A stretch of DNA of 64,000 nucleotides from a virus (lineage: Duplodnaviria > Caudoviricetes), in the IMG/VR virus record IMGVR_UViG_2595698668_000001, positions 96,001 to 160,000 of that record; one strand, given 5' to 3'. Below are positions 26,051 through 51,753 of the stretch, in pieces. The position numbers and the translations under genes were made by a program. Each line of letters opens with the position of its first letter. Within the stretch, counting starts at the first letter, position 1. Below the pieces are notes generated by a model. The model worked only from the letters and a program-made list of their open reading frames with translations, did not search any database and was not told the DNA's origin.

Positions 26051-26172
26051 ATAGATCTCGAACGTAGTGAGACGGCGTAGCCGCCTGTTCGCTTCGCTCA
26101 CACTTTCTAATTATAGATTTTCTATATAAATACTTATAGAGATTTTATACTTTGATTGCACTTGAAACTAAT
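26051..26172 (+). repeat. 122-bp dispersed inverted repeat, copy 1
   Basis: Reverse complement matches 51632-51753 at 119/122 positions. Confidence 0.95.
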
Positions 26173-26183
26173 CCATAGACACG

Positions 26184-26213
26184 AAAAGCCTACCCAAAAC
26201 AGGGTAGGCTTTT
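26184..26213 (-). terminator. terminator after gene 35
   Basis: aaaagcctaccc-aaaaca-gggtaggctttt. Confidence 0.8.
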
Positions 26214-26216
26214 CAT

Positions 26217-29200
26217 TTATACCTTTTTCCAATTAACTGTCTGTAGTTTTACACCTACCAGACCGATTGGTCTTATGTCAATAACTTTGTATTGACTAGA
26301 TGGCTCTAACCAGTTATCGACATCAATATCTTTCGATACGACATAGTTACCAGTTCCTATATATGCATATTTAGTTTGCAATATACCACCAATTTTTAAG
26401 GTTACTTCTAGTTGAGAATATGGTGTCACTTTTCCTTCAAACTCAATGATCATACTATGAGTTGAACCACCACTAACAATTTTAGATATCTTATCATTGT
26501 ATATATAGATATCATCCTTCAACCTACCGTTCCCGGCTACATCCCCAAGCACAGAATCCCATCCAACAACCCCTCCACCAGTTTTAAGAAGAACAGAACG
26601 TAGCTTCTTTCTGAATGTCAGAGTATTTTGAATAATATCGTTTTCTGGGATTATATATCCATTGTCAACTAAGTTATAAACTCGTGAGCTAGATACGGTA
26701 TTTGTTGATTCTATCATATCTATTTGTTTGATGATAGAGGATGAATTCCTCATACACATATCAGAAGATATCCCATCAACATGGTTATATGTTGAATTGC
26801 TAATAACAGAGTTTGTTCTGATATATAGGTTTGGAAAATTGTATTGAATGTCAATATCAAATTCCTTACCAACAGTCATACCATGGTTAATGGTAATATT
26901 GCTTATATTAGAACCCCGATTTTTGACAACAAACTGCAAAGTGGTTGACGATAAAGTGATGAATATACCATGAGTTTTATCCGTATTATCAAGGTAATAA
27001 CCACTAGAGAAATTATCACCAATGAATCTCAGTCTCCACGAATCTTTTTGTGGTAACCACGCTGGTAATATATTTAGGTAATTGTTATTTGATAGGTTTG
27101 GAACCCAAGAACTCATTGTATTCCCGATCATTTGAGGTTCTTCAAATGTATTAAAGAAATACGAAGCCCCTGCTACGTTATACCCGATGGCATCCGTTTT
27201 TGTGGAATATGCTACTAGACTTCTAACAGTCACAACATCCCCATTTCTTGCATTTGGTACACAGATATATAGACCTGAATCATGAGACGATTCTGTGTGG
27301 TTATGATAAATAACACCTTTAAATCTACCGTATGGTAAAGATTTGAGAATCTGACCGACACCAACTGTTGTACCATATACATCTTTAAGAAATAATGGTC
27401 TAGGGCAATCGATATCATATTCTATTCTATATCTTCCCTTTGCTGGTAAGTTAAGATGATATGTCATCCCACCTTCTGATACATCTTTTACAAATTTGAA
27501 TCTGTTGTTACTAACCACACTAATCGGGGAGTTCAAGTCATCCGACATTTTCCATTTAGACAGATCAACAGTATCATATACCAATACACCAGCATTATTC
27601 TGATCTTCTATACCAGTTGAGTAGTAGTTAAATCTAGATTCTTGAGTGTTTATATATGACCTAGAATCATTATCCCCGACAATATTAATGTCCCATATTT
27701 GACCATTCAAACATTCAGTTTTTGAATATCTACCACCAATATTTCTTATTACCGAACCTTTTTTCAGTTCGACAACAATACTATGTGGAATATTAGGAGT
27801 AATGGCTTCACCGTTATATGGCTTTCCGTCCAATTGAACAATAGACATATATGTGGAAGAAAAAGTCAGTACCTTCTGTCTAGATATATATAACCATCCA
27901 CCTTGAAGTTCTTGAGCGTTAGAACTTCGTCCATCCAATAGGTACATATTGAAATCTACGTTTCCAAAAATGAAATTGAATGTGGTATAACCAGATTTAT
28001 TGATCAAATATACTGGTGGAATATCAACCATCGTACCCCCATTGAAATTGAAGGTGTATTTGTTGTTTTTAACCCATGATATAGTAGGTTTCTCACTAAT
28101 TATATCTGGGTCAGTATAACAATCAACATCAAATTTAAGGTTTGTCATATTACCGGCAGATATCCAATTCACGCCATCTTTTCTAAAGAAGAACATGTGT
28201 CTAGGCTGTAGTCCCTGTGCTGATTGTCTTTCTGCAATAACCTCATATCTTTTGTTCATTTCAATACCGGTATTCAACGTAGCACCGTTATTTTCAACTA
28301 TGGTAACATAAGCCTTAGAACCGGTTTTCATTCCTGCTGGGATTAGTTGACTTCCGATGCCGCAATATAGCCAACCACCACCCGCATCCGGTGTGATATT
28401 GGAACCGGAATAATAAACACCACTAGCCGGAGAAGACCCTTTAATAAAAGGTAGTTTTTCTGATTGTGGATATTCATAATACCTTGAATTATTTGGTATC
28501 TCATAATCTTCATACTCCGAAGATATGATATACCCACTCATTTCAGATCCAACTCGAATTTCTTCAAACTCTCGTCTTGCTAAGTCTTCTATTGTTGTAC
28601 TTCCAACTAAAACCCCGTTGACATAAAACTTCATACTTGGGCTATCAATTTCCAACTTATACAAATATTCTTTATTACAAGAAATGATTTCATTCGTGGT
28701 AATCGTTTTTCCAGCATAAGTAACAATATGACCCATACCGGTAGGATGAGTCTTTGTTGTCATACCAATGAAAATAGTATCATCGGATCCAGATCCAACC
28801 CGGTTTACCGGTACGTTAGTATCTGTATAAACCATTGATATAAAATAAGAAAATTTCTTACCGACTACCAATTTAGGGTCTTTTATATATTTTCCATCAT
28901 TATAAGTGAAGTGAGGAAAACTAACATTTTCTAAATTACCATATTCAAATGCCGTAATATTTTTCTCTTTAATTCTACCTACAATATCCCCACTGGTTTC
29001 TATCGCATCTTCTGTAATAAAACCCCATTGACCAATAGAAGCAGTTCCGGATTTAACAACTACCGGTTTTTTCCTGAATACGGATACCGTGCGAACCCCA
29101 GTAGTACCAACATATTGGGATTTAACGGGCCATGACGTAGCATATACGGTTAATCTATCTATTGTGGTTGGAACAACAAAATCGTTATAAACAAAATCCC

Positions 29201-29996
29201 ACTGCCCAGACGTATCAAGAGAACTGACATATCCGGAAGTTACGGAAGTATTTCCGTTGTATCCAATATAATATAGTCTTATTGATTCACCTGCCGCAGC
29301 CGCAAGGTCGTCCCTATACGTCTCTAGAGTGAATCTGAGGGTTTCCCCCCAATTAACCACCATATCAGATATAAGGGTTTTATTCATGAATGTTTTGAAT
29401 TCCGCTGTTTTTGATTTTGCGTTTATATATTCCTGTTGGTCTGAGATGATATTGTTTCCATATCCAACAACACCAATATCATTGAACGTATCAAAAACAA
29501 CTTCTAGAGAAACATTTATAAACGAACTAACCCCAAATTGTTCTACCATAATCTTTTTGAGACCACAGTCATATATTGCAGCGTATCGGGTGTTCTGTGT
29601 GTTTGTTGATGGATTCCAATGATTTGACCAACCAATACATCCAATCTTTTTGAAATAGTTGTTGATTGATGTAGTTGTTATGTTTTCACCATGAGAGATC
29701 ATTAGAATAATCCCACTACCAATGGAATTGATCCAACCTTCAAACCGATTTACGTCAGTTTGATTCTTAAAATTAAAAACGTCTCTGATTCCAACACTAA
29801 GGTCGTTGTTTATACTGATGCACTCAAGACCGTCTATTTCGACTGGGTTGATTGAGTATCCATTGATAGACGCAATTTTATTTTGAGTGTCTGTTTTTGG
29901 GGATATCTTGATCTGATTTAATCCAGAAAAGTTCTCTGATAATTTATTAGACTTGATACCACCGTTTGAAATACTTGATATAACAAGTTCGGCCAT
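26217..29996 (-). CDS. 35: long tail fibre hinge connector gp35-like protein with large C-terminal extension
   Basis: Directly downstream of gene 34; N-terminal ~350 aa resemble gp35 (YAAIYD...KKIMVEQ, FDTFNDIGVVGYG); beta-rich extension. Confidence 0.75.
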   Translation of the reverse strand: MAELVISSISNGGIKSNKLSENFSGLNQIKISPKTDTQNKIASINGYSINPVEIDGLECISINNDLSVGIRDVFNFKNQTDVNRFEGWINSIGSGIILMISHGENITTTSINNYFKKIGCIGWSNHWNPSTNTQNTRYAAIYDCGLKKIMVEQFGVSSFINVSLEVVFDTFNDIGVVGYGNNIISDQQEYINAKSKTAEFKTFMNKTLISDMVVNWGETLRFTLETYRDDLAAAAGESIRLYYIGYNGNTSVTSGYVSSLDTSGQWDFVYNDFVVPTTIDRLTVYATSWPVKSQYVGTTGVRTVSVFRKKPVVVKSGTASIGQWGFITEDAIETSGDIVGRIKEKNITAFEYGNLENVSFPHFTYNDGKYIKDPKLVVGKKFSYFISMVYTDTNVPVNRVGSGSDDTIFIGMTTKTHPTGMGHIVTYAGKTITTNEIISCNKEYLYKLEIDSPSMKFYVNGVLVGSTTIEDLARREFEEIRVGSEMSGYIISSEYEDYEIPNNSRYYEYPQSEKLPFIKGSSPASGVYYSGSNITPDAGGGWLYCGIGSQLIPAGMKTGSKAYVTIVENNGATLNTGIEMNKRYEVIAERQSAQGLQPRHMFFFRKDGVNWISAGNMTNLKFDVDCYTDPDIISEKPTISWVKNNKYTFNFNGGTMVDIPPVYLINKSGYTTFNFIFGNVDFNMYLLDGRSSNAQELQGGWLYISRQKVLTFSSTYMSIVQLDGKPYNGEAITPNIPHSIVVELKKGSVIRNIGGRYSKTECLNGQIWDINIVGDNDSRSYINTQESRFNYYSTGIEDQNNAGVLVYDTVDLSKWKMSDDLNSPISVVSNNRFKFVKDVSEGGMTYHLNLPAKGRYRIEYDIDCPRPLFLKDVYGTTVGVGQILKSLPYGRFKGVIYHNHTESSHDSGLYICVPNARNGDVVTVRSLVAYSTKTDAIGYNVAGASYFFNTFEEPQMIGNTMSSWVPNLSNNNYLNILPAWLPQKDSWRLRFIGDNFSSGYYLDNTDKTHGIFITLSSTTLQFVVKNRGSNISNITINHGMTVGKEFDIDIQYNFPNLYIRTNSVISNSTYNHVDGISSDMCMRNSSSIIKQIDMIESTNTVSSSRVYNLVDNGYIIPENDIIQNTLTFRKKLRSVLLKTGGGVVGWDSVLGDVAGNGRLKDDIYIYNDKISKIVSGGSTHSMIIEFEGKVTPYSQLEVTLKIGGILQTKYAYIGTGNYVVSKDIDVDNWLEPSSQYKVIDIRPIGLVGVKLQTVNWKKV

Positions 29997-30012
29997 TATA
30001 TTGCCCCTATGA

Positions 30013-30037
30013 AAAAGCCACCCCGTAGGATGGCTTT
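30013..30037 (-). terminator. GCCATCC-TACG-GGGTGGC hairpin terminator between genes 34 and 35
   Basis: Stem-loop plus T tract; same hairpin recurs at 51241. Confidence 0.7.
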
Positions 30038-30043
30038 GTTTTA

Positions 30044-33000
30044 TTAACTGATCCAAACAAAGTCAACAGACTTGGTAGTTGGGTTTGCTCTTATTTCTAA
30101 GAATTCCCCGTTACCAACTGCTATCCTAAGTTTATTTACGGTTGTTGTTCCATTCAGGTTAGAATCACCATTTACGGTTAGTGCTTTCACCGAATTGATG
30201 ATAAGCTCACCTGTCATGGTATCACCGCCCTTAAACACACGAGAACCAGATGTAGTATTCATATCGTCTATCACGGAATCCAGATAGTCTTTACGAATTG
30301 CATCATCAGGGTCAATCGGTAATGCACTTCCTATCTTAACTTGAGCATTTACCTTTAAGTCACCATTTGATTCAAACGATGATGTATTGGATGGCGAAGA
30401 TAGACCGTTAGGGCGAATTTGTAATCCACCAAGAGAACCAATATTCAAACTCTCGTTTGAGTTTATGGTTATCCCACTCTTAGAAGTATTACCCATCCAT
30501 ATGTTTTGAACACCACTGTTCTTAAAATATGTAGTATTAACAAAAGTTTTGCTTCCGGTAATAGTTTCTGCGAAGTTACCCGGTCCACGAACATATCTTT
30601 CTTCTGCATAAGCAAAACGAACAAGGTGATTTCCTGACGTTGGGTTCTGTCCGCCGTTTTGAACTTGGTTGGTGAATATTGCGTTACCATCACGTTCGAC
30701 AGTAAAGATCCTATAGTATCTACTGTTTTCGTCCATTGCGTTAAGGATTAATGGACCATCAATCGTGTTTACACCAAGATCCAAAAACGCATTGCTACCC
30801 TGACGTTTCCACTGGATCATGGATACATGAGATGTAGTCGATGTTTCGTTGAGGTAGAAATAAGGTCTAATCTTCTCAATAGACGGATTTGCAGTAAACG
30901 TCATTTCACCGGTTATTGTTTGTGCAATAGTACGACGAACCCAATCAGTTGAAGGTATACGGTTTCCACCAACCTCCATTGCACTGGCACTTACAGCCAC
31001 CGCTTTTAGTGGTAGGAAATTGGCTAATGCTGTATTCAAACCTCTTGGGGAAACCAATACATCCCCGTGTGCATAACCGGTTAATGCTCTTGTAGAACCA
31101 AGAATATCATTACCTTCAAACACAGAGTTGGCGGAGTTGTTGTTTGACAATATCGCAGTAATACCAACACCATATCTGGTATCCGTCATTCTATATCCTG
31201 CACTATTTCTAGAGCTGGTCAGAGCGGTTAACGGGGTTAGATATTTTGTGTTGTTAGTACCGGTATCAACCTCAGATTGAGTTGCAATTTGCGACAAACC
31301 AGTTTGGGTTGTAGTTGCCAACCTAGCACTCAGTTTCTTTGGAGTTACGATAATTTCGTCATTTGCGGTTCCGGTCATATCGTTTACTTCGATCTGAGTT
31401 GCAATTCTCGCAGTACCTCGTTGTGACTCAGTAGGAATAACGATATTAAAAGATTGACCTTCCCAGATGTTACCAACTGTTCTAAGTCCTGCTGTATCAA
31501 ATACAGTCAGTCTTTCTCTAGCCAACCAATTACCAAATGTTTTTGGAGTAACAAACCATTTGTCATGTAATGTCCCTGCATCTACTTCCGCTTGTGTTGC
31601 GGTTTCGGACAAACCCCAACGGGCTTCCGTTGCAGTTCTGCTTACAAGTCCTTTTATGCTAACGTGTACGTTGTCACCAGCCGGTGGGGTGTTGCTAAGT
31701 ACTTCTGCGGCGGTTGCAGCCCTTGACAACCCGGTTAGTGATGCTGTAGCCTGACGTCCTTCTAGGGTGGTCGCTGTTACTACTAACGCACCAGTTGCGG
31801 TGTCAGCAGTACCTGTGTTAACCTCCCCTTGGTTGGCAATGTACACCATACCTTGTGAAAACTCAGTTGCATTTTTCTCAAATAGAGTTTTCGGAGTGAT
31901 TACCTTGCTATGATCGTTATAATCATAAACACCTGTACCCGGAGTTGTTCTTGTGGTAGGCTTAGTTCCATTAGCTGAGACAAGAGCCGATAAACCAGTC
32001 ATAGACTCGGTGGCAACTCTACCGTTTAGGGTAGATGGTGTGATTGCAACTTGAGCCCAGTTTTCACCAGAACCGGATTGTGCGTTTGCTTGACTCTGTG
32101 TCGCTACCTTCAACAACCCACGCATTGTTGTTGTAGATAGACGGTCGTTTAACAGGAACGGGCTTATTGCCACCCCAGACCATGCTTCATCGGATAGGTT
32201 TCCACTAACTGCCTTGGATTCGCCATTAGATGCATATCGGGTGATACCACGACGGACGGTACTTGCCGTTTTATTAGCCAATGTTTCTGCGGTAACAAAA
32301 TCCTCACAATCTGGGTTTTGACCGGTGGTGATCTCTTCTTTGTTCTTGTTTACAGATGCTTGAGAAGCAATAGCAGCCATACCATAAAATTCTGGTACAT
32401 TGCGGTCTACCCGATACGGAATCTCCGACATAGTAACAACAGACCAAACGTCTTTACCAGAACCCAGAGCATTTGTGAAGTACACAAATTCCCACTGTTC
32501 CCCCCGGTTTTGGATATCAAATGACTGAGTTTTTACGGTCTTTGATTCCATATTAGCGAGAAAATCACGATACGAGCTGATCCGTGGATTCATCAACGTA
32601 TTTCCATCCGGAACAAAGAAATCATTTGTGCTGGTTGCGTCGATGTTTAAAGTTAAAGTAGAACCCCTTTTCATGTATCGTGTGTCTATAAAGAAGCTAT
32701 CACCTCTTGCAGCATCGCGGGGGAATGTAATGTTGACAGTCGAGGGTGTTTCAGTATAAACTACTAGTCGGTCGTTTGGTTGACCCAAGTATGTAGATGT
32801 TTTAACGCTTTTCCAACGACTATAGCTATCAGAATCAAAAACTCGCCATGCGTTGAGGGTTGAATCAAAGACAAACATACCCCAATCAGTAGAATCGAAA
32901 ACAACCGTTTTCATTGGGGTCGATCCGTATTCAACTATGATGTTGTGGCTACTACCCGGATGAACGTTTACGGTTGTCTTTGTTACTGGGTTATTACCAT

Positions 33001-33736
33001 CAAGGTCATATGTGGTAATGGTATCACCGTTTCTGGCGAATTTTGGTAGTTGGATCTTAATTCCACCTGCATATCTGGTTTCTCTCATCAACTGATCGCC
33101 AACAATGGATTTATAATATCCACCTGCTGGGTATGACTTGTTGCTAATAAATGATTTGTTTACATCACCAGCGTATTCAGTTTGAACAAACCATTCACTA
33201 CCATTCAAAATGAAGTAGTTGGATGAATTTTTGGCGGTAATTTTATAAGAAGCCAAACCGGAAATAGTTCTTCCATTACCAGAAACATCTATGGTATAAT
33301 CGTGAAGATTAGAACCATTATCTCTGATAACAATAACGTCCCCATTAAGGGCATTAGTTGGTAGGGTAAATGTTACGTCACTACTTATGGTCTGTGCCAA
33401 GATGTGATCGCCAGCAGAAAGATTTGTCAACGCTGGTGCATTAGTCGTAACCAGCTTCCAACTTGGGTCTGTACGTACTGGTTTCCATTTTACCGGGTTG
33501 AATGCCTCTGGTGAGGTTATATCAACTTGACTTAGGTATATGCGGTTATCATAGATAACAGCAAAGTTTTTGTCGTATGTTCTAGTTGCGTCATATAGTT
33601 GGATTGTGTTTTCTTGTACAAAGAAATCGACACTCACACCATCCATCTTTGAGTTAATATCGGGATATCCGACGTTAACTATTTTTTGACCTGCGGCATC
33701 TAAGCCGTCGGTAACGCGAAACGGAATTGAAGACAT
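30044..33736 (-). CDS. 34: long tail fibre proximal subunit gp34
   Basis: FRVTDGLDAAGQKIVNV start, RTDPSW, repeated ATQxEVxxG...VTPKTL units; divergent from rnh. Confidence 0.95.
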   Translation of the reverse strand: MSSIPFRVTDGLDAAGQKIVNVGYPDINSKMDGVSVDFFVQENTIQLYDATRTYDKNFAVIYDNRIYLSQVDITSPEAFNPVKWKPVRTDPSWKLVTTNAPALTNLSAGDHILAQTISSDVTFTLPTNALNGDVIVIRDNGSNLHDYTIDVSGNGRTISGLASYKITAKNSSNYFILNGSEWFVQTEYAGDVNKSFISNKSYPAGGYYKSIVGDQLMRETRYAGGIKIQLPKFARNGDTITTYDLDGNNPVTKTTVNVHPGSSHNIIVEYGSTPMKTVVFDSTDWGMFVFDSTLNAWRVFDSDSYSRWKSVKTSTYLGQPNDRLVVYTETPSTVNITFPRDAARGDSFFIDTRYMKRGSTLTLNIDATSTNDFFVPDGNTLMNPRISSYRDFLANMESKTVKTQSFDIQNRGEQWEFVYFTNALGSGKDVWSVVTMSEIPYRVDRNVPEFYGMAAIASQASVNKNKEEITTGQNPDCEDFVTAETLANKTASTVRRGITRYASNGESKAVSGNLSDEAWSGVAISPFLLNDRLSTTTMRGLLKVATQSQANAQSGSGENWAQVAITPSTLNGRVATESMTGLSALVSANGTKPTTRTTPGTGVYDYNDHSKVITPKTLFEKNATEFSQGMVYIANQGEVNTGTADTATGALVVTATTLEGRQATASLTGLSRAATAAEVLSNTPPAGDNVHVSIKGLVSRTATEARWGLSETATQAEVDAGTLHDKWFVTPKTFGNWLARERLTVFDTAGLRTVGNIWEGQSFNIVIPTESQRGTARIATQIEVNDMTGTANDEIIVTPKKLSARLATTTQTGLSQIATQSEVDTGTNNTKYLTPLTALTSSRNSAGYRMTDTRYGVGITAILSNNNSANSVFEGNDILGSTRALTGYAHGDVLVSPRGLNTALANFLPLKAVAVSASAMEVGGNRIPSTDWVRRTIAQTITGEMTFTANPSIEKIRPYFYLNETSTTSHVSMIQWKRQGSNAFLDLGVNTIDGPLILNAMDENSRYYRIFTVERDGNAIFTNQVQNGGQNPTSGNHLVRFAYAEERYVRGPGNFAETITGSKTFVNTTYFKNSGVQNIWMGNTSKSGITINSNESLNIGSLGGLQIRPNGLSSPSNTSSFESNGDLKVNAQVKIGSALPIDPDDAIRKDYLDSVIDDMNTTSGSRVFKGGDTMTGELIINSVKALTVNGDSNLNGTTTVNKLRIAVGNGEFLEIRANPTTKSVDFVWIS

Positions 33737-33794
33737 TTACAAGATCCTCTTGTGTTAGAATTAGTTATCATATATTATTTAGGGAGATTAACAG

Positions 33795-34730
33795 ATGTCA
33801 TTATTTGACAATCCAGATCTTGGGCTAACTGGCGAACCCAATATTCAACTAATAGATTATAGCCAAATAGTAATTTCAAATTTGATGTTTTACTTCAAAC
33901 CGGAAGATATCATCACTCCAAAAATCATTCGTAATATCATCATCGATGCATTGCGTTCTCATGTTTTGAAAAACAAAAATGATTATCCAAATATCATTAT
34001 TGCAATAGATTCCGTTGATGGATATTGGCGACGGGATGTAGCGCCGTATTATAAAAAGAGTCGGATCGCCAAAAAAGAAGAAAGTGGTTACGATTGGAAA
34101 GCTATTGGTGAAGCAATGACCGAAGTTCGGAAAGAAATTGCGCAATACCTTCCGTATAAGACTATTTATGTTCCGGGTGCAGAAGCAGATGATATTTTTG
34201 GTGTTTTGATAAAATACTTCAAAGAGAAAGACCCAGATGTTAAGATACACATAACGTCAGCAGATGGAGACTTTACCCAGCTTCAAAAGTGGAAAGGTGT
34301 TCGTCAATGGAACCCAATGCATAAGAAATGGGTTAAACCTGAACATGGTAGCGCCCAACGGGATCTCCTTTATAAAATTGTAAAGGGTGATACCAAGGAC
34401 TCCATCGCAAATATCTACTCTCCGTCTGACCTTATTTATAAAAATAGTCTTCTGGAAAAAGAAGACCGAGTGAGACAGAAATCAATTCGAAAAGAATTGC
34501 TGGCAAGTGTATTTACTGCCAAGGAACCAAAATCGCTTTTTGAAGGTGATGTATTGGAAAGATTTGAAGAAAATGAAAAATTAATTGATTTTAACTTCAT
34601 CCCCGATGATATTTCTGCTAAAATACTCACAGAATATCATTCTTTCAAAGTTCCAGCTCGTGGTAAAATCACAAATTACTTTATCTCTTCTGGTATGTCA
34701 GAAATGATCGGAAAAGAATCTGAATTTTAA
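33795..34730 (+). CDS. rnh: RNase H / 5'-3' exonuclease
   Basis: LIDYSQI, YWRR..YYKKSR, EADD, SADGDFTQL, KGDTKD. Confidence 0.97.
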   Translation: MSLFDNPDLGLTGEPNIQLIDYSQIVISNLMFYFKPEDIITPKIIRNIIIDALRSHVLKNKNDYPNIIIAIDSVDGYWRRDVAPYYKKSRIAKKEESGYDWKAIGEAMTEVRKEIAQYLPYKTIYVPGAEADDIFGVLIKYFKEKDPDVKIHITSADGDFTQLQKWKGVRQWNPMHKKWVKPEHGSAQRDLLYKIVKGDTKDSIANIYSPSDLIYKNSLLEKEDRVRQKSIRKELLASVFTAKEPKSLFEGDVLERFEENEKLIDFNFIPDDISAKILTEYHSFKVPARGKITNYFISSGMSEMIGKESEF

Positions 34731-34745
34731 TTGAGGAAATATAAT

Positions 34746-35970: not shown

Positions 35971-35994
35971 AAATAATCCAAAGGAAAATAAAAT

Positions 35995-41806: not shown

Positions 41807-41841
41807 AGGAAAGGGGGAGTACCCCCTTACTTGAAAGGAAT

Positions 41842-42437: not shown

Positions 42438-42440
42438 AGT

Positions 42441-42476
42441 AAAATCCCAAGTGAATCAATCACTTGGGATTTTTTG
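42441..42476 (+). terminator. terminator after uvsY
   Basis: aaaatcccaagtga-atcaa-tcacttgggatttttt. Confidence 0.8.
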
Positions 42477-42572
42477 TATTTATTTTTCAAAAATCGCTTG
42501 CACCAAAATCCAGTTCTGGTAATATTACTCATGTCGGGACGGGTTGTCCCTCTTCTGAAAAGGAAATGAACC

Positions 42573-42800: not shown

Positions 42801-42811
42801 GGAGAGATAAA

Positions 42812-43168: not shown

Positions 43169-43183
43169 AGCGGGCTTTAAAAA

Positions 43184-43465
43184 TCAAAAGTCTTCTACTT
43201 CCTCACCACCTTCCTCTTGTTTAAAGGCTTCACGGCGACCATCGATTGCATCCCGGATCTGAATATCATCAGTATCCGAAATAGCAACGGATTTTATTCG
43301 ACTTTTATAATAACGTTCTAGTTCGTCAAGTCCTTTGGGTGTCATTGCTGACATAATTTTACCCAAAAACTTTTCGATACTTACAGCAGGTTTGTCATCA
43401 CCACCATCGGTGTTTTTTTCTTCTACCTCTTCTTGAAGGCGAAGATAATCAGCAAAATATATCAT
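43184..43465 (-). CDS. uvsW.1: UvsW.1 protein
   Basis: SIEKFLGKIMSAMTPKGLDELERYY..R...SDTDDIQIRDAIDGRR. Confidence 0.9.
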   Translation of the reverse strand: MIYFADYLRLQEEVEEKNTDGGDDKPAVSIEKFLGKIMSAMTPKGLDELERYYKSRIKSVAISDTDDIQIRDAIDGRREAFKQEEGGEEVEDF

Positions 43466-43466
43466 T

Positions 43467-44390
43467 TTATACCTCTTGAATAATTGATAATACTCTTGGT
43501 AAGTCTCTTTCATATATAGTCTCTGTATTACCAGAGTACAACCAATCAGACACACCAGAAAATTGTTGTTTTATTTTTTGTTCTATATTGAAAGGTACGT
43601 TTCCATCGTCATATAACCGTTTAAACACGTTTTCGGATATTTCCATATCTACACCACGTATATGTTCGGATGACCTTTCGTCGGGGTCTCTATTTGTTAT
43701 CCCATATTTGTATATAACAGGGAGACGTTCTGCTTTGTATTTATACACATAAAACCAACCAGATTTTGATTTGTCATATCCGCCGTGACTAGAACACCCA
43801 GAACACCTATAACCATTTATAAAATTGTTGGCAGTAGAACTATTTATTCCATGATCAGGGCAAATATATTCGAATCTCGATTTTTGGTTTTTATAGCCTT
43901 CTGGAAATCCTAAAAATTCATACCCAGAATCATCACATAAAGACTTAATGTGTGATGATATCTCTTTTAATGTCTTCCTTTTATTTTTACTACACGAAGG
44001 GCATCCAGTTTCTTTATTTACAAAATTTACATAAAATGATTTTTGTGTTCCATGATGTTTACATTCAAATACAACAGAACGCATATCATTTAACTCATAA
44101 TCAGAAAATTCTATAAATTTATATCCAGATTTTTCGCATCTTCGTTTTATTAAAATTTCGTGCTGTTCTTTTGTTAAATGCTTCTTTTTAGAGCACCCAC
44201 AATTGAAATTACCATTCTCCAAATTATATTTTGTTGTAGAGAACGGGTGTGGGTATAACTCTTTATCTTCCGAGCATATCGAACAAGTATATTCGAAATG
44301 GGTTCTTCCCAATTTTTTAATTTTATTAATTACAACAATTTTACCACCACGGTCGGTGGTAAAATTGGAACCTACGAAATCACATATCAA
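43467..44390 (-). CDS. putative homing endonuclease with Cys/His zinc-ribbon repeats and C-terminal GIY-YIG-like domain
   Basis: CSIC, CKHHG...GCPSC, CPDHG...CSGC repeats; WFYVY...YKYGITNR...E; lower GC; inserted between uvsW and uvsW.1; TTG start overlaps uvsW stop. Confidence 0.75.
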   Translation of the reverse strand: MICDFVGSNFTTDRGGKIVVINKIKKLGRTHFEYTCSICSEDKELYPHPFSTTKYNLENGNFNCGCSKKKHLTKEQHEILIKRRCEKSGYKFIEFSDYELNDMRSVVFECKHHGTQKSFYVNFVNKETGCPSCSKNKRKTLKEISSHIKSLCDDSGYEFLGFPEGYKNQKSRFEYICPDHGINSSTANNFINGYRCSGCSSHGGYDKSKSGWFYVYKYKAERLPVIYKYGITNRDPDERSSEHIRGVDMEISENVFKRLYDDGNVPFNIEQKIKQQFSGVSDWLYSGNTETIYERDLPRVLSIIQEV

Positions 44391-45892
44391 AGCAAAATCT
44401 CCTTGATCTGATAATCAAACATCTCACTTGCATATCTTTCGATACGAAGCATTGCATGTTTGTAAGCATAATTTTTATGTGCATATTTAACCGAGCCCGG
44501 TTTTGAATTTTTGGTCTCGATACATAGGTTATCTACAATATCCCATAGAGTGGCTATAGTCTTCTCACCATGCTTTCGAAGAACCCGACCAATACTCTGT
44601 AACGTGGTAACCTTAGATTTAAATGGGGAAGCGAATATAACGTGAAATAGCTTTTTGATAGAAATACCGGTTGAGAATATACCGATAGAAGCAACGATGA
44701 TCATTCCATCGCTACCTTCTGCAATTTTCTTAAGCTGATCCCGTTCCTCTACGTTAGTATCACCATTAGCAAAGAATACATTATCGTGCTTTTTGCTAAG
44801 GGCCTCATAAAGTTTCTTCCCATGTTCCTTATGCCTAAACAATATCAAGGTATTCTCTTTCTTCTCTTTGGCTAATTTTAAAGCCAAACGACACACAAAA
44901 GCATTTCTCTTTGTATGTTCCTCGATATATTTAATCTCTTGTTGATATTCTATTCCTTTAGTTAATACACAATCTTGTTTAGGATACCGCAAGAACAGGT
45001 TATTTATTTTAAGATCTGTTACTTGACCCTCTTCCATAAGTTGTTTAGTACTAACCGGCTTGAATACATCCCCAAACAAACCAACATACGACATAATATT
45101 ACATTTACCATCTTTCAAAGAACCACTCATACCCCATTTAAACGGGCACTCAGAGAGGTTTGTGATGATATTCTTAATCTCACTACCTACGTTGTGACAC
45201 TCATCAATCAAAAGAGCCCCAAATTGACGAAACCAATGAACAGGTTGTTTTGATGCACTTTGCCATGTACTAACGAATACTGGTGCTGGGTGATCTTTTG
45301 TTTTGCCAGCCATAATACCATGAGAAAATTCCCGTCTCATAAACTGGTAATCCGCGAAATCGTCCATCATCTGAGTAACAAGGGAGGTTGTTGGAACGAT
45401 CAGCAATATTTTCCCATCATAATTAGTCATATACCAGTAGCAAATAAGAGCTGCTATTAGGGATTTACCGGCAGATGTAGGAAGGTTTAAGATACCCCGG
45501 TTATTCTGAATTGCGTAATAAACCGCATCAGCCTGATACCAGTGAGCGGTAATCTTATTTCCCCCAGAATATATATCAATATCCGCCAACCATTTGTCAA
45601 ACTCTTCTCTAGATGTGAAATGGCTAATAGGGGTGAAGTCTTCTTCTTTTTCAAATTCGTATTCGTTTCTAGCGCAATATTTCTCAAGGTTATTGACCAG
45701 ACCATAAGGGAATTTCCCATCCGGTTGTAGGAGACGGATCCGACCATCCCAACCGCTATATTTAAACTTAGGATTAAATCTAGCGCCACCTTCCGTCTCA
45801 AATGAATAATACTCTCTCAACTCCATGAAGATGTCACGTTCACACTCAATAATCGCATTACTATAGTCGTTGAATTTAACTGATACTTTCAT
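44387..45892 (-). CDS. uvsW: SF2 helicase UvsW
   Basis: WDGRIRL, LPTSAGKS, VPTTSLV, DECH, QSIGRVLR. Confidence 0.97.
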   Translation of the reverse strand: MKVSVKFNDYSNAIIECERDIFMELREYYSFETEGGARFNPKFKYSGWDGRIRLLQPDGKFPYGLVNNLEKYCARNEYEFEKEEDFTPISHFTSREEFDKWLADIDIYSGGNKITAHWYQADAVYYAIQNNRGILNLPTSAGKSLIAALICYWYMTNYDGKILLIVPTTSLVTQMMDDFADYQFMRREFSHGIMAGKTKDHPAPVFVSTWQSASKQPVHWFRQFGALLIDECHNVGSEIKNIITNLSECPFKWGMSGSLKDGKCNIMSYVGLFGDVFKPVSTKQLMEEGQVTDLKINNLFLRYPKQDCVLTKGIEYQQEIKYIEEHTKRNAFVCRLALKLAKEKKENTLILFRHKEHGKKLYEALSKKHDNVFFANGDTNVEERDQLKKIAEGSDGMIIVASIGIFSTGISIKKLFHVIFASPFKSKVTTLQSIGRVLRKHGEKTIATLWDIVDNLCIETKNSKPGSVKYAHKNYAYKHAMLRIERYASEMFDYQIKEILL

Positions 45893-45992
45893 CTCATCTC
45901 TCTTTAAATTTTTCACATATATAATTTATTTAGGGTAACACTAAATAAATGCGAGGGAATACCATTTCCTCATGACGTAGGGAGAAAATAAA

Positions 45993-46355
45993 ATGCTTAT
46001 AAATAGTAAGCTGTTTAAAGACACCCTACCCGTCCTAACCGTTATTGTGGCGATTTGGGCCTCTATATTTTCATATAATGAATTTATAGCGGATTCCCGC
46101 CAAGTAGCTTTTAAAGAGCAAATCACTTCCCACATGGACAAATCTATAGATAACCTAAGAACGGAGATTAAATCTCTCCCAAATAAGGATTCTGTAGAAA
46201 CTGCTCAACTGCGGGCAATGCTTTATAGCAAGGATCTTATCGATGAGGTTAATAGGGGGAACCGAGTTGAATTGGAGAGACTTGAGAAGCGGATCAGTGA
46301 AATGGAAAACGCCAGAGTTGAGAAGAAAACTCAAACAAAACGCGAGGACGGTTAA
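45993..46355 (+). CDS. membrane-anchored coiled-coil protein
   Basis: N-terminal hydrophobic segment LPVLTVIVAIWASIFSY then charged helical domain; ACTAAATA upstream. Confidence 0.65.
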   Translation: MLINSKLFKDTLPVLTVIVAIWASIFSYNEFIADSRQVAFKEQITSHMDKSIDNLRTEIKSLPNKDSVETAQLRAMLYSKDLIDEVNRGNRVELERLEKRISEMENARVEKKTQTKREDG

Positions 46356-46477
46356 GTTGTCTAACGTGGGTCATGATGCAATTTGCTCATGGCCTTTTTT
46401 CTTTTTAAAAAGGGGTTGACTCATGAAACTTATGTGTAGTATTATCTATCTCGTTGAGACACGAAAGAGGAATTACA

Positions 46478-46960
46478 ATGCTGAATGATCCTTATGAGTT
46501 GTTTTTTGATATGGATGGGGTGATGGCGGACTGGTGTCGTGCATTCGATGCTCGTTTTGGTGCGGGTGCGGCGGAACAGTTTGATAGCCTGAACAAAGAA
46601 GAGAAGAACCTTATCAAAGAAGAACTGGCAAATGGTAATTTCTATCGTCATCTTCCGGTGATGGAAAAGGGGGTTTCTCTGGTTATTGAGATGGTTCGTC
46701 AGGGTCGCAAGGTAAGTATTTTGACTAGCGTCGGTCGTCAAAACCCAGAAAACGTAGTTCGCCAGAAGAAAGGTTGGATCTCTTATGTATATCCCGCTGA
46801 TGTTGCTGCGGTTCTGTTAGAAAACTTCCATTATACCCTGTGTAGCGAAGACAAAGCCGCGTTTGCTCGTCCGAACGTTTGTCTGGTTGATGACCGTGCT
46901 AAGAGTCGCATCCCGTTCATCGCTGCTGGTGGTGTTGCTGTTGATATCGCTGACCTTTAA
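46478..46960 (+). CDS. HAD-family 5'(3')-deoxyribonucleotidase-like protein
   Basis: FFDMDGVMADW, ILTS, KKGW, LVDDR. Confidence 0.85.
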   Translation: MLNDPYELFFDMDGVMADWCRAFDARFGAGAAEQFDSLNKEEKNLIKEELANGNFYRHLPVMEKGVSLVIEMVRQGRKVSILTSVGRQNPENVVRQKKGWISYVYPADVAAVLLENFHYTLCSEDKAAFARPNVCLVDDRAKSRIPFIAAGGVAVDIADL

Positions 46961-46972
46961 GAGGAATTGATT

Positions 46973-47287
46973 ATGTTGGTAGAAAGTTTGTCTGTTGGTG
47001 TTGTTTGTCTTGGTCTGGCATATGGTCTTGACAAGTTTTTGGGAACTGGTATCTTTTCTTGGAAAGAGAAAACCCCATCAAAATTGATGCGATCTAACTC
47101 AGATCAAGATTCAGTAATGAGGAACCAACACAACCAAAAAGGTATGATCGCCAAAAATGTGTTTGGTAAATTTTATGGTGGAAAGCATAAAGCTAGGGTA
47201 AACTATGTCGAGAAAGAACTTTGTGTTCCACACCCGGTAATTGTTAACTTTATGAACAACCTTTATAAAGAAAGGAAACAAAAATGA
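46973..47287 (+). CDS. hypothetical protein with N-terminal hydrophobic segment
   Basis: GAGG RBS; ORF in operon. Confidence 0.6.
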   Translation: MLVESLSVGVVCLGLAYGLDKFLGTGIFSWKEKTPSKLMRSNSDQDSVMRNQHNQKGMIAKNVFGKFYGGKHKARVNYVEKELCVPHPVIVNFMNNLYKERKQK

Positions 47288-47607
47288 GTAATGAAGAATT
47301 GCAAGTAGAATATCCAAACATTTATTTTTCGAAGTACAGTACAGGGTCTTATTGGCGAAAAGGGGCTGGTGGAAGGGATGCAGAAGCACTACCACGAAAC
47401 AAACCACTTGAGTTTCTTAACGAACAGTGCGGTTTGGTAAATGTAGGTGTTCGATATTTTGTATGTACTTGTTGTGGTACTGCACAAGACGAAGACCAAC
47501 TGGTGGGTAATGTGTTTGCGGGGAAATATTGCAAAACCTGCTATGACAAAGAGCCACAAATTCGCAAATCTATTGCCGAAAGCAAAAAACCCGGTTTTTA
47601 TGACTAA
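47284..47607 (+). CDS. hypothetical zinc-finger protein
   Basis: CTCC...CKTC. Confidence 0.65.
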   Translation: MSNEELQVEYPNIYFSKYSTGSYWRKGAGGRDAEALPRNKPLEFLNEQCGLVNVGVRYFVCTCCGTAQDEDQLVGNVFAGKYCKTCYDKEPQIRKSIAESKKPGFYD

Positions 47608-47622
47608 ATAAAAGGAAATAAT

Positions 47623-48624
47623 ATGATTTTTGTAAAATATAACTCTCTTGAGAACCACTATCGTCAAAACGTCATCGACTCTTTTACAACTTCCGGATAT
47701 ACTGCAAAGGGTGTTGAATGGGTTGCAATGGAAAAGATTCATGGTACGAATTTTCAACTTGCTGTAAATGATGAACATGTACAGGCGGGTCGTCGAACTG
47801 ATCTTATTGGTGATTTTGACCAGTTTTATGAAGCAGACCTGATTGTAAAGAAATATCATGACAATGCACGAAAAGTATACGACTTTGTTAAACAAAAACA
47901 CCCAGAAGTTGATCAAGTAACAATCTTCGGGGAATATGCCGGTAATCTTACTACTGGTAAAATGATTCAAAAGGAAGTAGAATATGGAGATCAAGACTTT
48001 TATGTGTTTGATATCTTCATTTTCTCTGGTGAAACTGGAATGTACCTCTCCCACGATTTCGTGATGGAGTCCATCAGAGGAATCTTCAAACATGCCCCGG
48101 TTATCTACCGTGGGGATTTCGATGGTGTGACAAAACTCCCGAACGACTTCCAATCCGTTGTTATCCCAAACAACAAAGAAGGAAAATTCGGTCTGGTGGT
48201 AGGAACTGATAACATTGCGGAGGGGTTTGTTGCGAAGACAGTAGACCCACATTATACCCGTCAAGGTCGGACTATTTTCAAATCTAAAAACTCCAAGTTT
48301 ACCGAGAAAGGGAAATCTGACAAACCGGTAAAGGTAAAAGAGCCTCTGGGTGAATCTGATCTTGCTATGGTCCATGAGATCGCAGAATATATCAACGTAA
48401 ATCGTCTTAAAAACGTCCTAAGTAAGATCGGGATCCCTACCACTAAAGAGTTTGGTAAGGTTTCTGGTAACCTCTCGAAAGACGCAATCGAAGATTTCAC
48501 GAAGGATACCAACAAAAACCTACGAGATGCAGAACGACCTTCTGATGTGGGTAAAGCAGTGAACAACCTAGCAGGGGAACTTGTTCGGGAACACTGGATG
48601 AATATCCTTGATGGAAATTTCTAA
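47623..48624 (+). CDS. rnlB: RNA ligase 2
   Basis: MIFVKYNSLENHY, EKIHGTNF, GEYAG, FDI, AEGFV, KSKNSKFTEK. Confidence 0.97.
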   Translation: MIFVKYNSLENHYRQNVIDSFTTSGYTAKGVEWVAMEKIHGTNFQLAVNDEHVQAGRRTDLIGDFDQFYEADLIVKKYHDNARKVYDFVKQKHPEVDQVTIFGEYAGNLTTGKMIQKEVEYGDQDFYVFDIFIFSGETGMYLSHDFVMESIRGIFKHAPVIYRGDFDGVTKLPNDFQSVVIPNNKEGKFGLVVGTDNIAEGFVAKTVDPHYTRQGRTIFKSKNSKFTEKGKSDKPVKVKEPLGESDLAMVHEIAEYINVNRLKNVLSKIGIPTTKEFGKVSGNLSKDAIEDFTKDTNKNLRDAERPSDVGKAVNNLAGELVREHWMNILDGNF

Positions 48625-48707
48625 AAATAAATGAAAAAAGGCTTGCCAACGGGTAAGCCTTTTTGATATCTTATACATATCGAAACAAGAGACAGAAAGG
48701 ACGAATC

Positions 48708-49343
48708 ATGAACAACGAAAAATTCAATGAAATTATGGAAAACGTAGTTGGTATGGTAGAAGCCGGTTTTGTTTCTAAGGCCGGTCAGAAACGCGCCCTG
48801 AACGAATGCACAAAAATGATGGATCTGGTGCGAGCCGAATTTTCTTCCTTCTATCTGGACTCCATTAGTATCGAACAGCGTAATATGGATCTTCCGGAAC
48901 ACGAAGCGGCGGTAGACCTTTATTATGCACATCCAAACACCGCAACTTTTGCCAAATATCTGGTAAAAGCAGAAAAAGCAATGCCTTGGATGGATAAAGC
49001 TCTGTGTGAAGAATTGGTTTCTATGGGTGAACAGGTTGTTGCTATGATTGCAACAGTTAAAAACGCCCCCATCAACCAACCAGAACCGAAAGTTAGCGAG
49101 AAAGAAGCAGTCATCAAGAAAAACATCATGGAAATCATGGAACTTCGGGGTGAACAGTTCAACCGGTGTCTTCGTTTGGATGAGATGTTTGGTCGGATGA
49201 TGGTAACCGCTAACGTTCACCTTGTTCGTGGACACAAAGGTACTGTGTTTGTTCGCGCCTTCTACTACGTTTGTGGTCACCTGACCCCTCTGAACGTAAT
49301 CATTGCTGCAATGGAAGAAGCAGCAAAAAAAGAAACCAAATAA
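48708..49343 (+). CDS. hypothetical early protein
   Basis: AAGGA RBS before ATG 48708; TTGCCA/TGATATCTT promoter-like sequence upstream. Confidence 0.7.
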   Translation: MNNEKFNEIMENVVGMVEAGFVSKAGQKRALNECTKMMDLVRAEFSSFYLDSISIEQRNMDLPEHEAAVDLYYAHPNTATFAKYLVKAEKAMPWMDKALCEELVSMGEQVVAMIATVKNAPINQPEPKVSEKEAVIKKNIMEIMELRGEQFNRCLRLDEMFGRMMVTANVHLVRGHKGTVFVRAFYYVCGHLTPLNVIIAAMEEAAKKETK

Positions 49344-49364
49344 CTTTAAATTGAGGAATGAAAA

Positions 49365-50084
49365 ATGAAAAAGCGGTTTGTTAGTTTTGCTATCTTAGGT
49401 GCGATGTGCGCTATTAGTGCGGTACAGGTTAATGCCGCATCTTTTGATTGTGAGAAAGCATCAAGCAAAATAGAACGAACTATTTGTACAGACGAACGTT
49501 TGAGTGAATCAGACGAGAAACTAAATTCTGTTTATAAAGAAGTTCGAAAAATTAACCCGGCGATTATTGAAGGTCAGCGGGATTGGGTCAAACGTCGTAA
49601 TAAAGCATCTTCAATCGAAGAACTCGACCAACTTCATGAAACACGGATCCAAGAACTTGAATCCATGCTTAAACCAATCATCGAACAAGATGATGAAAGT
49701 GTATTCACTCGTTCCGAACAACCAAAAATCAAGAAAGTGTCTGTTGTTGAAAATAAAAACGTAGTGAAAGACATTAAATATTATATCGATGAAGTACAGC
49801 GCACTGGTGGAATGACTAATAAGGATGGATTCTTTTCCGCAAAAGAAGTGGGTAAGGGTTATCCTAGTTGGTTAAAAGGTTGTGGGATGGTTGTGGGTGA
49901 AGCACACGGTACAAAATATTTCATTAGTGACGCCAAGAAATATGGTCAATTTGATATCTATATCCAGAATGAATTGAGCTTTAAAACTGTCGCGGCTAAT
50001 ATCATGATTAAAAATATGGTAGATTCCGTAAAAGGCGATCTAGGTCTTGTTAAAATTATGTGTGATTCCGGAGAATTATATTAA
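49365..50084 (+). CDS. secreted protein with LprI-like (lysozyme inhibitor, DUF1311-type) N-terminal domain
   Basis: Signal peptide ending VNA, then ASFDCEKASSKIERTIC...LNSVY...QRDWVKRRN. Confidence 0.75.
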   Translation: MKKRFVSFAILGAMCAISAVQVNAASFDCEKASSKIERTICTDERLSESDEKLNSVYKEVRKINPAIIEGQRDWVKRRNKASSIEELDQLHETRIQELESMLKPIIEQDDESVFTRSEQPKIKKVSVVENKNVVKDIKYYIDEVQRTGGMTNKDGFFSAKEVGKGYPSWLKGCGMVVGEAHGTKYFISDAKKYGQFDIYIQNELSFKTVAANIMIKNMVDSVKGDLGLVKIMCDSGELY

Positions 50085-50350
50085 TGAACCTCAAAGCTCG
50101 TGAATTGATGATAGAGCTATTCAATAACGGGATCGAGTGTAGGTTGGTATCTTCATCCACAAGCTCTTATATCGACGTACAGGGGCATATGGTGAGGGTT
50201 TCAGATCACGGAGGTCATTCTAAGTTCAAAGGAACTCAGATCCGAAAAGACCATGGCTATAAAAAGACCAAATATGGTATGATCTTTGGGTATAACGAGA
50301 TTGGAATGGCAGTAAAATATCTCAAATCCCTAAATACATTAACAAACTAA
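50084..50350 (+). CDS. hypothetical protein
   Basis: 88 aa, SSYI...VRVSDH motif. Confidence 0.65.
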   Translation: MNLKARELMIELFNNGIECRLVSSSTSSYIDVQGHMVRVSDHGGHSKFKGTQIRKDHGYKKTKYGMIFGYNEIGMAVKYLKSLNTLTN

Positions 50351-50362
50351 GAGGAATGCGAA

Positions 50363-51235
50363 ATGGCATTGAATTATGTAGAAGAACCAGTAGAAAAAGA
50401 AACTAAACCAAAAAAGTCTACTGCGAAAAAACAAAAAGAACTTGACCTTGGGGTAATCAACGAAATTGTTGATGCTAATACCGCACCAGAAGCAAAGGCT
50501 AAAATTCAAGCATATGCTAAAGAGTGTGGATTTAAAATTAGCAAGTCTAATACTTCTGTTGACGATATGATCGTCAAACTCCTTGAAATGGCGGACGCCA
50601 AAGAGAATGAAAAACTGGATCTTGCACCAGAACCAAAAGAAAAAACCCCTTTTATTGAACCTGTTGTAGTCGATGATGAATTCGACGTTGTAGATGAGGT
50701 TATTGAACTTGGTGTGGTTGAATCAATCAAAATTGATGATGGGGTAGTTAATATAAATACTCCAAACGATGTGAAAATTGAATTCACTCCACCAAAACCA
50801 CTAGAATATGTTGATGCTTCTGGGTTTAAAACTCTAGACGAATTAATTGAAGATGAAAAGACGTTTGTTAAAGAAAAAATGAAATCTGAAATTGAGGAAC
50901 CAAAGGATGATTGGTCTCCAATTGCAGGACCAGAGCGCGGTTTAATCCCATCGTTAAAGAATAATCAAAACCAATATACCAGAGAACCAGATTTGACCTA
51001 TGGTTTCAAACCAAAAGTAAATCTAATTGGTGCAGTTGGAAACCAATACCTTAATTGCCCATATTGGATTCTTGATTGGATTCTTGAGAAGGGGCCGACT
51101 TGGAAGAGTATTATTGATACTCATGAACGTGAACCGGATAAAGCACTTCTGAAAACAGTTCTTTATTACATCCAGATTAATGGCAGCGTGACATTGCGAG
51201 AAAGTCGAAATTCTCGTTTCCATACCATTTACTAA
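50363..51235 (+). CDS. inh: inhibitor of prohead protease Inh
   Basis: C-terminal LIG...YLNCPYWILDWI...YYIQINGSVTLRESRNSRF; late promoter upstream. Confidence 0.88.
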   Translation: MALNYVEEPVEKETKPKKSTAKKQKELDLGVINEIVDANTAPEAKAKIQAYAKECGFKISKSNTSVDDMIVKLLEMADAKENEKLDLAPEPKEKTPFIEPVVVDDEFDVVDEVIELGVVESIKIDDGVVNINTPNDVKIEFTPPKPLEYVDASGFKTLDELIEDEKTFVKEKMKSEIEEPKDDWSPIAGPERGLIPSLKNNQNQYTREPDLTYGFKPKVNLIGAVGNQYLNCPYWILDWILEKGPTWKSIIDTHEREPDKALLKTVLYYIQINGSVTLRESRNSRFHTIY

Positions 51236-51240
51236 TATCT

Positions 51241-51266
51241 AGCCATCCTACGGGGTGGCTTTTTTG
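51241..51266 (+). terminator. terminator after inh
   Basis: agccatcc-tacg-gggtggct-tttttt. Confidence 0.85.
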
Positions 51267-51316
51267 TATCCCTAAATACTAATTGACCATTTTGGTCAAT
51301 ATAATAAGGGTGTTTA

Positions 51317-51538
51317 ATGGAATACAATTTCATCGAAGTTAATGAAAATATTTTTGTTCTTACTGGATATTTCGGATCTTATAATTTGATTGAGAGATGG
51401 AAAAGACTTGAAGAAGATGACCATTTAATGATCGTGAAGATAAAGGAATATTTGGAGAGGGGAAATATTGTGGTTGTACATGATGTACAAGAAGATTTAT
51501 TCGTTAAGCTAGATGGAGATAAATTTTACGTTTTTTGA
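51317..51538 (+). CDS. small late hypothetical protein
   Basis: CCCTAAATA at 51270, AAGGG RBS, terminator at about 51585. Confidence 0.65.
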   Translation: MEYNFIEVNENIFVLTGYFGSYNLIERWKRLEEDDHLMIVKIKEYLERGNIVVVHDVQEDLFVKLDGDKFYVF

Positions 51539-51631
51539 TTTCGTATTGTATCAGACACTACGAATGTTTTTAACTTTTATACTTAGGTGATCTCTCGATC
51601 ACCTTTTTTGTATCTTTTATATACAAAAATA

Positions 51632-51753
51632 ATTAGTTTCACTTGCAATCAAAGTATAAAATCTCTATAAGTATTTATATAGAAGATCTATAATTAGAAA
51701 GTGTGAGCGAAGCGAACAGGCGGCTACGCCGTCTCACTACGTTCGAGATCTAT
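51632..51753 (-). repeat. 122-bp dispersed inverted repeat, copy 2
   Basis: Reverse complement of 26051-26172 with 3 mismatches. Confidence 0.95.

Follow-up and report, generated by a model that had tools for sequence, protein, structure and literature searches.

The 64,000-nt window analysed here (bases 96001-160000 of the 231,743-bp virus record IMGVR_UViG_2595698668_000001) carries twice a non-coding element composed of a conserved box (L), a palindrome (P) and a hairpin (S). Copy 1 lies at 26051-26172, with the order L-to-P-to-S on the minus strand, and copy 2 at 51632-51753, with the same order on the plus strand. The two arms are reverse complements over 122 nt with 119 of 122 positions agreeing (98% complementary) and are spaced 25,459 nt apart, exactly as claimed in an earlier interpretation made from the sequence alone (the sequence-only reading), and the flanks of both arms are unrelated. 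The copies align best with copy 1 taken from the minus strand and copy 2 from the plus strand. Chance can be excluded as the origin of the 122-nt pair, since the next-longest inverted pair within the 64-kb window measures 39 nt at 85%. All three mismatches between the arms occupy columns that vary across the whole family of copies described below, two of them being free positions of the L box and the third lying in the palindrome.

Both copies are intergenic. On its L side, copy 1 is 44 nt from the end of the gene for gp35, the long-tail-fiber proximal connector (26217-30056, minus strand), and on its S side it is followed by a 39-aa open reading frame (ORF) with a Shine-Dalgarno sequence (25867-25986, minus strand; phrog_33162, E 1.3e-31), which is also annotated in phage 65, ZPAH1 and AS-zj and is convergent with a SegE-type GIY-YIG homing endonuclease gene (24968-25870, plus strand). 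Together with nrdA, the latter forms the block that gene 35 had been said to abut, and it does so. The neighbours of copy 2 are inh, a 73-aa ORF, a DprA-like gene of 186 aa on the S side (51792-52352, plus strand, 45 nt past the element) and gp24. The position beside terminators was also correctly recognised in the sequence-only reading: past the 73-aa ORF the terminator scan returned a terminator-like hairpin that has a T run (51585-51604, plus strand) and ends 28 nt before copy 2, and a perfect 9-bp hairpin with T-rich tails (26187-26210) was read from the sequence between gp35 and copy 1, 15 nt from the latter. The hairpin at 26187-26210, which is probably the terminator of gp35, is GC-rich with T-rich tails on both strands and was not flagged by the terminator scan, though it apparently meets the rule stated for that scan.

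Six copies at fixed sites

The element had been taken for a pair, but the genome contains six copies, which we named by genome position as s32, s81, s122 (copy 1), s147 (copy 2), s189 and s219. A profile of the six copies searched with filters off recovered them all, at E 2e-40 to 8e-22, and no seventh locus of the genome scored below E 4. Among 50,697 phage records 18 match, all of them from the Aeromonas phage 65 group and with four to six places each. According to their taxonomy lines the matching records belong to the genera Ceceduovirus and Ishigurovirus, and they represent 15 distinct phages, three of which are present twice. IMG/VR yielded 10 loci; phage 65 and AS-zj account for seven, and among the three of environmental origin there is one true relative; a metagenome scan gave 17 loci, of which four extend past the searched word. 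The ORFs beside the environmental variant had no PHROG match, and over the approximately 1.3 kb of the uncultured contig that holds the element (1063-2338 of the extract) no ORF reaches 70 aa.

Five relatives (phage 65, avDM6, ZPAH1, AS-zj and AS-sw) were examined in full, with copies placed by BLAST of 1.2-kb flanks. Every one of the six sites bears a copy or a remnant in phage 65, ZPAH1 and AS-zj. Five sites are occupied in avDM6, where s189 was not found at E 0.01, and five in AS-sw, where s122 is deleted. In cyclic order and strand the copies of all five relatives agree with this genome. Both genera thus share the six sites as defined by their flanks; the elements were therefore present before the genera diverged, and the recent movement put forward in the sequence-only reading is rejected. 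A transposable element, such as a miniature inverted-repeat transposable element (MITE), was likewise considered and discarded: the ends of the element are unrelated, there is no consistent flanking duplication, and the five relatives carry the element at the same six sites. In the AS-sw and AS-zj records, single N letters are scattered inside elements and at deletion junctions, which may be consensus ambiguity from reads of several copies.

An assembly artefact at copy 1 or copy 2 is unlikely, because contigs of two sequencing runs enter the repeat and the same junctions are found in 18 of 18 deposited relatives. Across the region of copy 1 (25301-27000), contigs of runs X2 and X3 enter the repeat from one or both flanks and none spans it; the contigs of the runs covering this region (X1, X2, X3 and X16) stop inside the repeat, their loose ends are the flanks of other copies, and no joints were reported. 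Of these runs, X1 may be the source. All 24 public runs with the phage are available as contigs, and no RNA dataset is listed among them. Recombination between the copies had been predicted to flip the intervening segment, but no fixed inversion exists among the records: in every one of the 18 records both window junctions are contiguous, agree in strand label and are separated by 22.6-26 kb, the sites are collinear in the five relatives examined in full, and no inversion between any pair of sites was found in the latter. The AS-sw record, which is labelled a partial genome, starts with an inverted stretch of approximately 6.3 kb (1-6389) corresponding to 141.3-147.7 kb of this genome, which switches at an element into the flank of s32 and so forms an inversion-type s147/s32 junction. 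However, the record has this 6.3 kb a second time, at the usual position, and lacks approximately 8 kb (32.2-40.1 kb). A misjoin at the repeat is the probable cause of this chimeric-looking junction, the alternative being real inversion-type recombinant molecules, and in practice assembly is at risk from a repeat of 115 nt that occupies six sites and occurs in both orientations.

Module anatomy and conservation

Each copy consists of an L box of approximately 21 nt, an AT-rich imperfect palindrome P of approximately 42-50 bp and a GC-rich imperfect hairpin S. Column statistics were derived from 28 usable copies of six genomes, 6 of the 34 copies being left out as truncated, N-rich or rearranged. 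In the L box (51633-51653, plus strand, in copy 2; 26152-26172, minus strand, in copy 1), 16 columns are invariant in all 28 copies and four vary freely. Module P spans 51649-51698 in copy 2, where 21-nt arms that are 71% complementary stand 8 nt apart, and 26110-26151 in copy 1; at s147 of phage 65 the arms are 15 nt long and 87% complementary. At the ends of P are two -10-type hexamers that face outward and are 28-30 bp apart. The rightward hexamer (TATAAT at 51689-51694, plus strand, in copy 2; 26110-26115, minus strand, in copy 1) retains TAnnnT in 28 of 28 copies, and the leftward one (TATAnT at 51653-51658, minus strand, in copy 2; 26146-26151, plus strand, in copy 1) is invariant in all 28 at five positions, with the fifth position free (G in 10, T in 10, C in 6 and A in 2, given for the L-P-S strand). 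The centre of the palindrome exists in two types, one in this genome, AS-zj, AS-sw and ZPAH1 and the other in phage 65 and avDM6, and it is identical at every site of one genome.

Module S begins 9-10 nt past the rightward hexamer (51704-51745, plus strand, in copy 2; 26059-26103, minus strand, in copy 1) and forms, as resolved for copy 2, an imperfect hairpin in which the outer stem has 6 bp and the apical stem 4 bp, with internal loops. The folding energy is -17.6 to -20.7 kcal/mol with or without short flanks. Covariation was assessed in 17 same-orientation copies (16 distinct), which are related sequences, one of them being the source of the structure; in this set 95.5% of 221 cells are paired in the nested hairpin, compared to 28.7-43.9% when the partners are slid, and no shuffle out of 500 attains this value. 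Of the four apical pairs, two have both partners changed in a compensatory manner, and the six outer pairs show no unpaired cell among 93 despite 13 one-sided changes.

Concerted evolution and local rearrangement

The sequences of the copies indicate that the six have evolved in concert, since paralogues are more alike than same-site orthologues between the genera. Based on 29 full-length copies (5 of the 34 left out), the mean identity of paralogues is 0.84 within this genome and 0.81 within phage 65, whereas copies of this genome and phage 65 are 0.70 identical at the same site and 0.69 at different sites; the coding flanks of the two are approximately 71-73% identical. Moreover, different subsets of copies are homogenised in each genome, with an identical S shared by s81, s122, s147 and s189 here and by s32, s122 and s189 in ZPAH1. 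This is the pattern expected from repeated gene conversion among dispersed copies, with recombination as the putative homogenising force, and in this respect the sequence-only reading, which had named gene conversion or strong selection, was borne out. A constraint beyond recent conversion is nevertheless suggested for the centre of the palindrome, because in phage 65 and avDM6 the hairpin loops vary from site to site while the centre remains constant; a lineage-specific constraint such as a cognate binding factor may be the reason.

With respect to REARRANGEMENT and plasticity, S is inverted relative to L-P at s219 of this genome, AS-zj, AS-sw and ZPAH1, and also at s147 of ZPAH1. The order at s122 of ZPAH1 is L-P-L', and s189 of phage 65 has two convergent L-P units across approximately 70 nt that holds two other short GC hairpins, an arrangement unseen in this genome. 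At s81 of AS-zj the palindrome is precisely missing between short direct repeats. The uncultured contigs carry a more distant form of the element, with recognisable L and P. It retains the 15-nt word of the 5' hairpin side without change, but places it upstream, downstream or as an inverted repeat around L-P: in one contig a 28-bp perfect inverted repeat of the word encloses L-P, and in a second the word is upstream of L.

Gene content next to the element differs in one case. A 76-aa ORFan (phrog_38638, genome 80769-81012) adjoins the L end of s81 in this genome and in avDM6, whereas phage 65, AS-zj and AS-sw have approximately 30 nt in its place; each genus thus includes both alleles, the presence or absence of the ORF being independent of genus. 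We considered s219 as a second ORFan indel and rejected it, as the difference there is approximately 540 nt from the element and does not abut it. The neighbourhoods of s147 and s32 are not alignable between the genera. At three or more sites (gp35|segE-nrdA, inh|gp24 and gp54-like|gp26) the gene order departs from that familiar from T4.

Candidate functions of the element

We consider the best explanation, with roughly an even chance of being correct, to be that the element is a portable, PeSL-like cassette of a bidirectional promoter and a hairpin, occupying six fixed sites in phage 65-like phages and also used as a substrate by homologous recombination. The host RNA polymerase, perhaps altered by factors of the phage, would start transcription at the palindrome both to the right and to the left. 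The rightward transcripts would have their start 2-4 nt ahead of the GC-rich hairpin and be capped by it at the 5' end, and the leftward ones would start inside the L box. Phage homologous recombination, which in T4 needs only approximately 50 bp of homology, would correct the six copies against each other by gene conversion, because they share at least 100 nt of near-identical sequence, and would occasionally invert or double sub-modules and exchange neighbouring small genes. A promoter is favoured by the way in which the two hexamers are conserved and by the genes that start a short distance past the element. Genes with a Shine-Dalgarno sequence lie on the S side of s32 (a 130-aa ORF with its start 16 nt away), s122 (the 39-aa ORF), s147 (the DprA-like gene) and s219 (an 82-aa ORF), and on the L side of s81 (the 76-aa ORF, 12 nt) and s189 (baseplate gp26, 73 nt).

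The repeats called PeSL offer the closest comparison. According to PMC2839356 and PMC4122927, a PeSL combines an early promoter, with -35 and -10 boxes approximately 17 nt apart (TTGACA/TATAAT, with the variants TTTACW/TAYWAT and TTGYVH/TAWWAT), with a stem-loop, and is intergenic, directly before a small ORF with a Shine-Dalgarno sequence and start. The same papers tie PeSLs to ORFan insertions, deletions and replacements between close relatives, describe the copies as only loosely similar, concentrated where the genome is hyperplastic and numbering several dozen (52 in phi1 and 51 in RB49), report promoter and attenuator activity in reporters as well as mini-circles formed by recombination between copies, and name RB49/phi1, T4/PST and KVP40/nt-1 as carriers (PMC2839356; PMC4122927). 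Similarly, the present element joins a promoter-like AT-rich part to a stem-loop that folds stably with compensatory changes, is intergenic in all six copies and repeated in a T4-type genome, stands beside small ORFs and at least one ORFan indel (at one of six sites, s81), and is a plausible substrate for homologous recombination. The next gene is on the hairpin side in four of the six copies and on the L side in two. In contrast to PeSLs, the element has six copies rather than approximately 50, and these are 82-99% alike over approximately 115 nt instead of sharing a loose motif; it has no clear -35/N17/-10 arrangement, having a palindrome with two outward hexamers and an extra L box in its place; and two of the six copies face away from the local genes, with sites fixed across two genera. 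Since the profile search gave exactly six loci and not many loose copies, we do not file the element as a PeSL and describe it, by analogy, as one that may work like a PeSL without being classed as one. The earlier proposal of a regulatory cassette comparable to the PeSLs is supported in part, by the promoter-like AT-rich module joined to a stem-loop and by the one abutting ORFan difference; the element does not share the PeSL pattern of copy number and similarity, and no canonical -35/-10 promoter was found in it. Phage 65 is not mentioned in PMC2839356 or PMC4122927, and full-text searches found no printed description of the repeat, with none mentioned in the P19 and Petrov 2010 papers, supplements aside.

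Other known systems resemble parts of the element. Symmetric bidirectional promoters were reportedly described in bacteria by Warman et al. in 2021, and like these the element has a -10 hexamer on each strand of a single symmetric stretch rich in AT; unlike in these, the hexamers are 28-30 bp apart instead of overlapping, and activity would be predicted here from the sequence. The REP/BIME repeats of bacteria are likewise short, GC-rich, imperfect intergenic hairpins that occur in both orientations and are homogenised within a genome, whereas here the hairpin is joined to an AT-rich palindrome and an L box, the copies number only six and belong to a virus, and no transposase was seen to go with them.

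Several observations weigh against the promoter cassette. A scan for the sigma-70 consensus found no promoter inside either window copy, and neither of the conserved outward hexamers has a recognisable -35. By eye, the sole -35-like pairing is TTGCAA-N17-TATAAG, which in this genome is without the key last T; the phage 65 counterpart, GTGCAA-N16-TATAAT, is better. The PeSL promoter consensus of the nt-1 type is not enriched in the genome (25 matches compared to 16-33 in shuffles). Promoter activity of the element would accordingly need a -35-independent mode. Directly past the S end of each window copy there are site-specific sigma-70-like matches (26020-26048, minus strand, and 51757-51785, plus strand), one of them with a T4-early-like -35, and the downstream genes may have their own promoters through these sites. 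As for the hairpin, terminator scans of the window copies found no canonical T run at S, and both-strand folding of 22 S modules favoured the L-P-S strand in 10 of 22, with a mean difference of -0.2 kcal/mol; the strand that would act as RNA, if any, is not readable from a fold without strand preference. A crossing, pseudoknot-type pairing fits almost as well (95.0%), with unpaired cells where the nested outer stem has none, and is neither preferred nor rejected. Finally, AS-zj has truncated copies at three sites (s122, s147 and s81) and AS-sw has lost the one at s122, so that individual copies are dispensable.

The central octamer of the palindrome (51672-51679, minus strand, in copy 2; 26125-26132, plus strand, in copy 1) equals the T4 late-promoter word, and a T4 late promoter was tried as an explanation and rejected. 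The word occurs in the palindrome centre of this genome's own type and is absent from the phage 65/avDM6 type, and the genome holds 20 such octamers on both strands compared to approximately 34 expected from base composition; being unconserved and below the expected count, it was not used as evidence.

Elsewhere in the genome, at 6753, 7247, 17346, 34112 and 138498, there are promoter-like sites with TTGCAT, a spacer and an extended -10 (TGG before TATTAT or TAATAT). They are unlike the element, two of them are identical over 28 nt, and they may be ordinary early promoters of the phage.

A different explanation, to which we assign a minor though real share of probability, is that the six palindromes are operators of one phage-encoded, lineage-specific DNA-binding factor with a small regulon. 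The factor would bind the palindrome centre and the conserved 15-nt word of the 5' hairpin side, and the switch of centre type would reflect co-evolution with it. This overlaps the promoter cassette, the difference being that function would reside in protein binding and not in a self-sufficient promoter. It would account for a centre that is identical within a genome and falls into two lineage types while the hairpin loops of phage 65 differ by site, for the 16 invariant L-box columns outside any hexamer, and for the 15-nt word that two uncultured contigs keep unchanged but position and orient differently with respect to L-P, in an enhancer-like manner. The phage also encodes an AsiA homologue (genome 215646-215873, 78.5 bits, approximately 4 kb from s219), and the MotA C-terminal DNA-binding domain (MotCF) was undetected in the genome by a search that had no positive control. 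On the other hand, no candidate factor was identified, type-specific identity is also obtainable from conversion sweeps, and the six sites lie beside unrelated genes (ORFans, the DprA-like gene and baseplate gp26) with no obvious common regulon. In a further reading, the palindrome could be the site of a factor that replaces MotA in an AsiA-positive lineage, with the cassettes as -35-independent bidirectional middle-mode promoters, the centre type switched together with the factor and the 15-nt hairpin word as an orientation-independent auxiliary site; we regard this reading as rather improbable.

It is decidedly improbable, in our opinion, that the element is a selfish or neutral palindromic repeat regenerated by gene conversion and without a role in expression. 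The loss or truncation of single copies in AS-sw and AS-zj without loss of viability, the mixed orientation to genes (four versus two) and the tolerated internal inversions and duplications are what such a repeat would be expected to show. However, the six sites are kept across two genera whose flanks are only approximately 71-73% alike, the invariant and free columns fit -10 hexamers, the hairpin stem is kept by compensatory changes, and no terminal inverted repeats, target duplications or new insertion sites were seen in the five relatives.

The proposal of paired replication origins made in the sequence-only reading fares worse. Extended to all six elements it would have the palindrome unwind and the boxes bind an initiator, or a transcript prime replication as at T4 oriF(uvsY) and oriG(34), which consist of a middle promoter and a downstream unwinding element. 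The copy number is near the five origins of T4, the palindrome is AT-rich, and as in oriF and oriG a promoter-like element stands in an AT-rich context, with s122 beside the gene 34/35 block and s189 by baseplate genes, loosely like T4 oriG and oriE on the T4 map. Unlike the copies of the element, the T4 origins are not known to be sequence repeats of each other or to share any such repeat. According to PMC4122927, MotA-dependent middle promoters have a Mot box, TGCTT, near -30, and in the aligned copies no Mot-box-like word stands at the -30 position upstream of either hexamer. Furthermore, a GC-rich hairpin, not an unwinding element, follows the rightward hexamer. We consider origins very improbable.

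That the element encodes a small RNA, its hairpin being transcribed from the rightward hexamer, is scarcely probable at all: the hairpin covaries, a second strong hairpin follows within approximately 15 nt of that of s189 and s81 has no ORF following on that strand, but Rfam 15 gave four weak matches over the six loci (18.7 kb; E 0.24-0.75), none reaching E 0.2 and none on the element, no consistent terminator follows S, the start codon at s32 is 16 nt past S, and S occurs in both orientations relative to P with no strand bias in folding.

With this element, the notion that T4-type phages carry regulatory cassettes prone to recombination is extended to the lineage of phage 65. The case is an unusually clean one, in which few copies, high identity and fixed sites allow conversion, module inversion and neighbour exchange to be traced copy by copy. 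If both outward hexamers are active, the element would be a compact natural bidirectional promoter and provide a handle on the transcription programme of T4 relatives in which the MotA DNA-binding domain is undetected.

A second small repeat family was also observed, consisting of near-identical terminator hairpins at window 30012-30050 and 51226-51264 (39 nt, 85%) and at genome 189824-189850 beside s189. Its copies follow the neighbour of gp35, inh and the gp54-like gene, and for two of the three an element is only a few hundred bases away.

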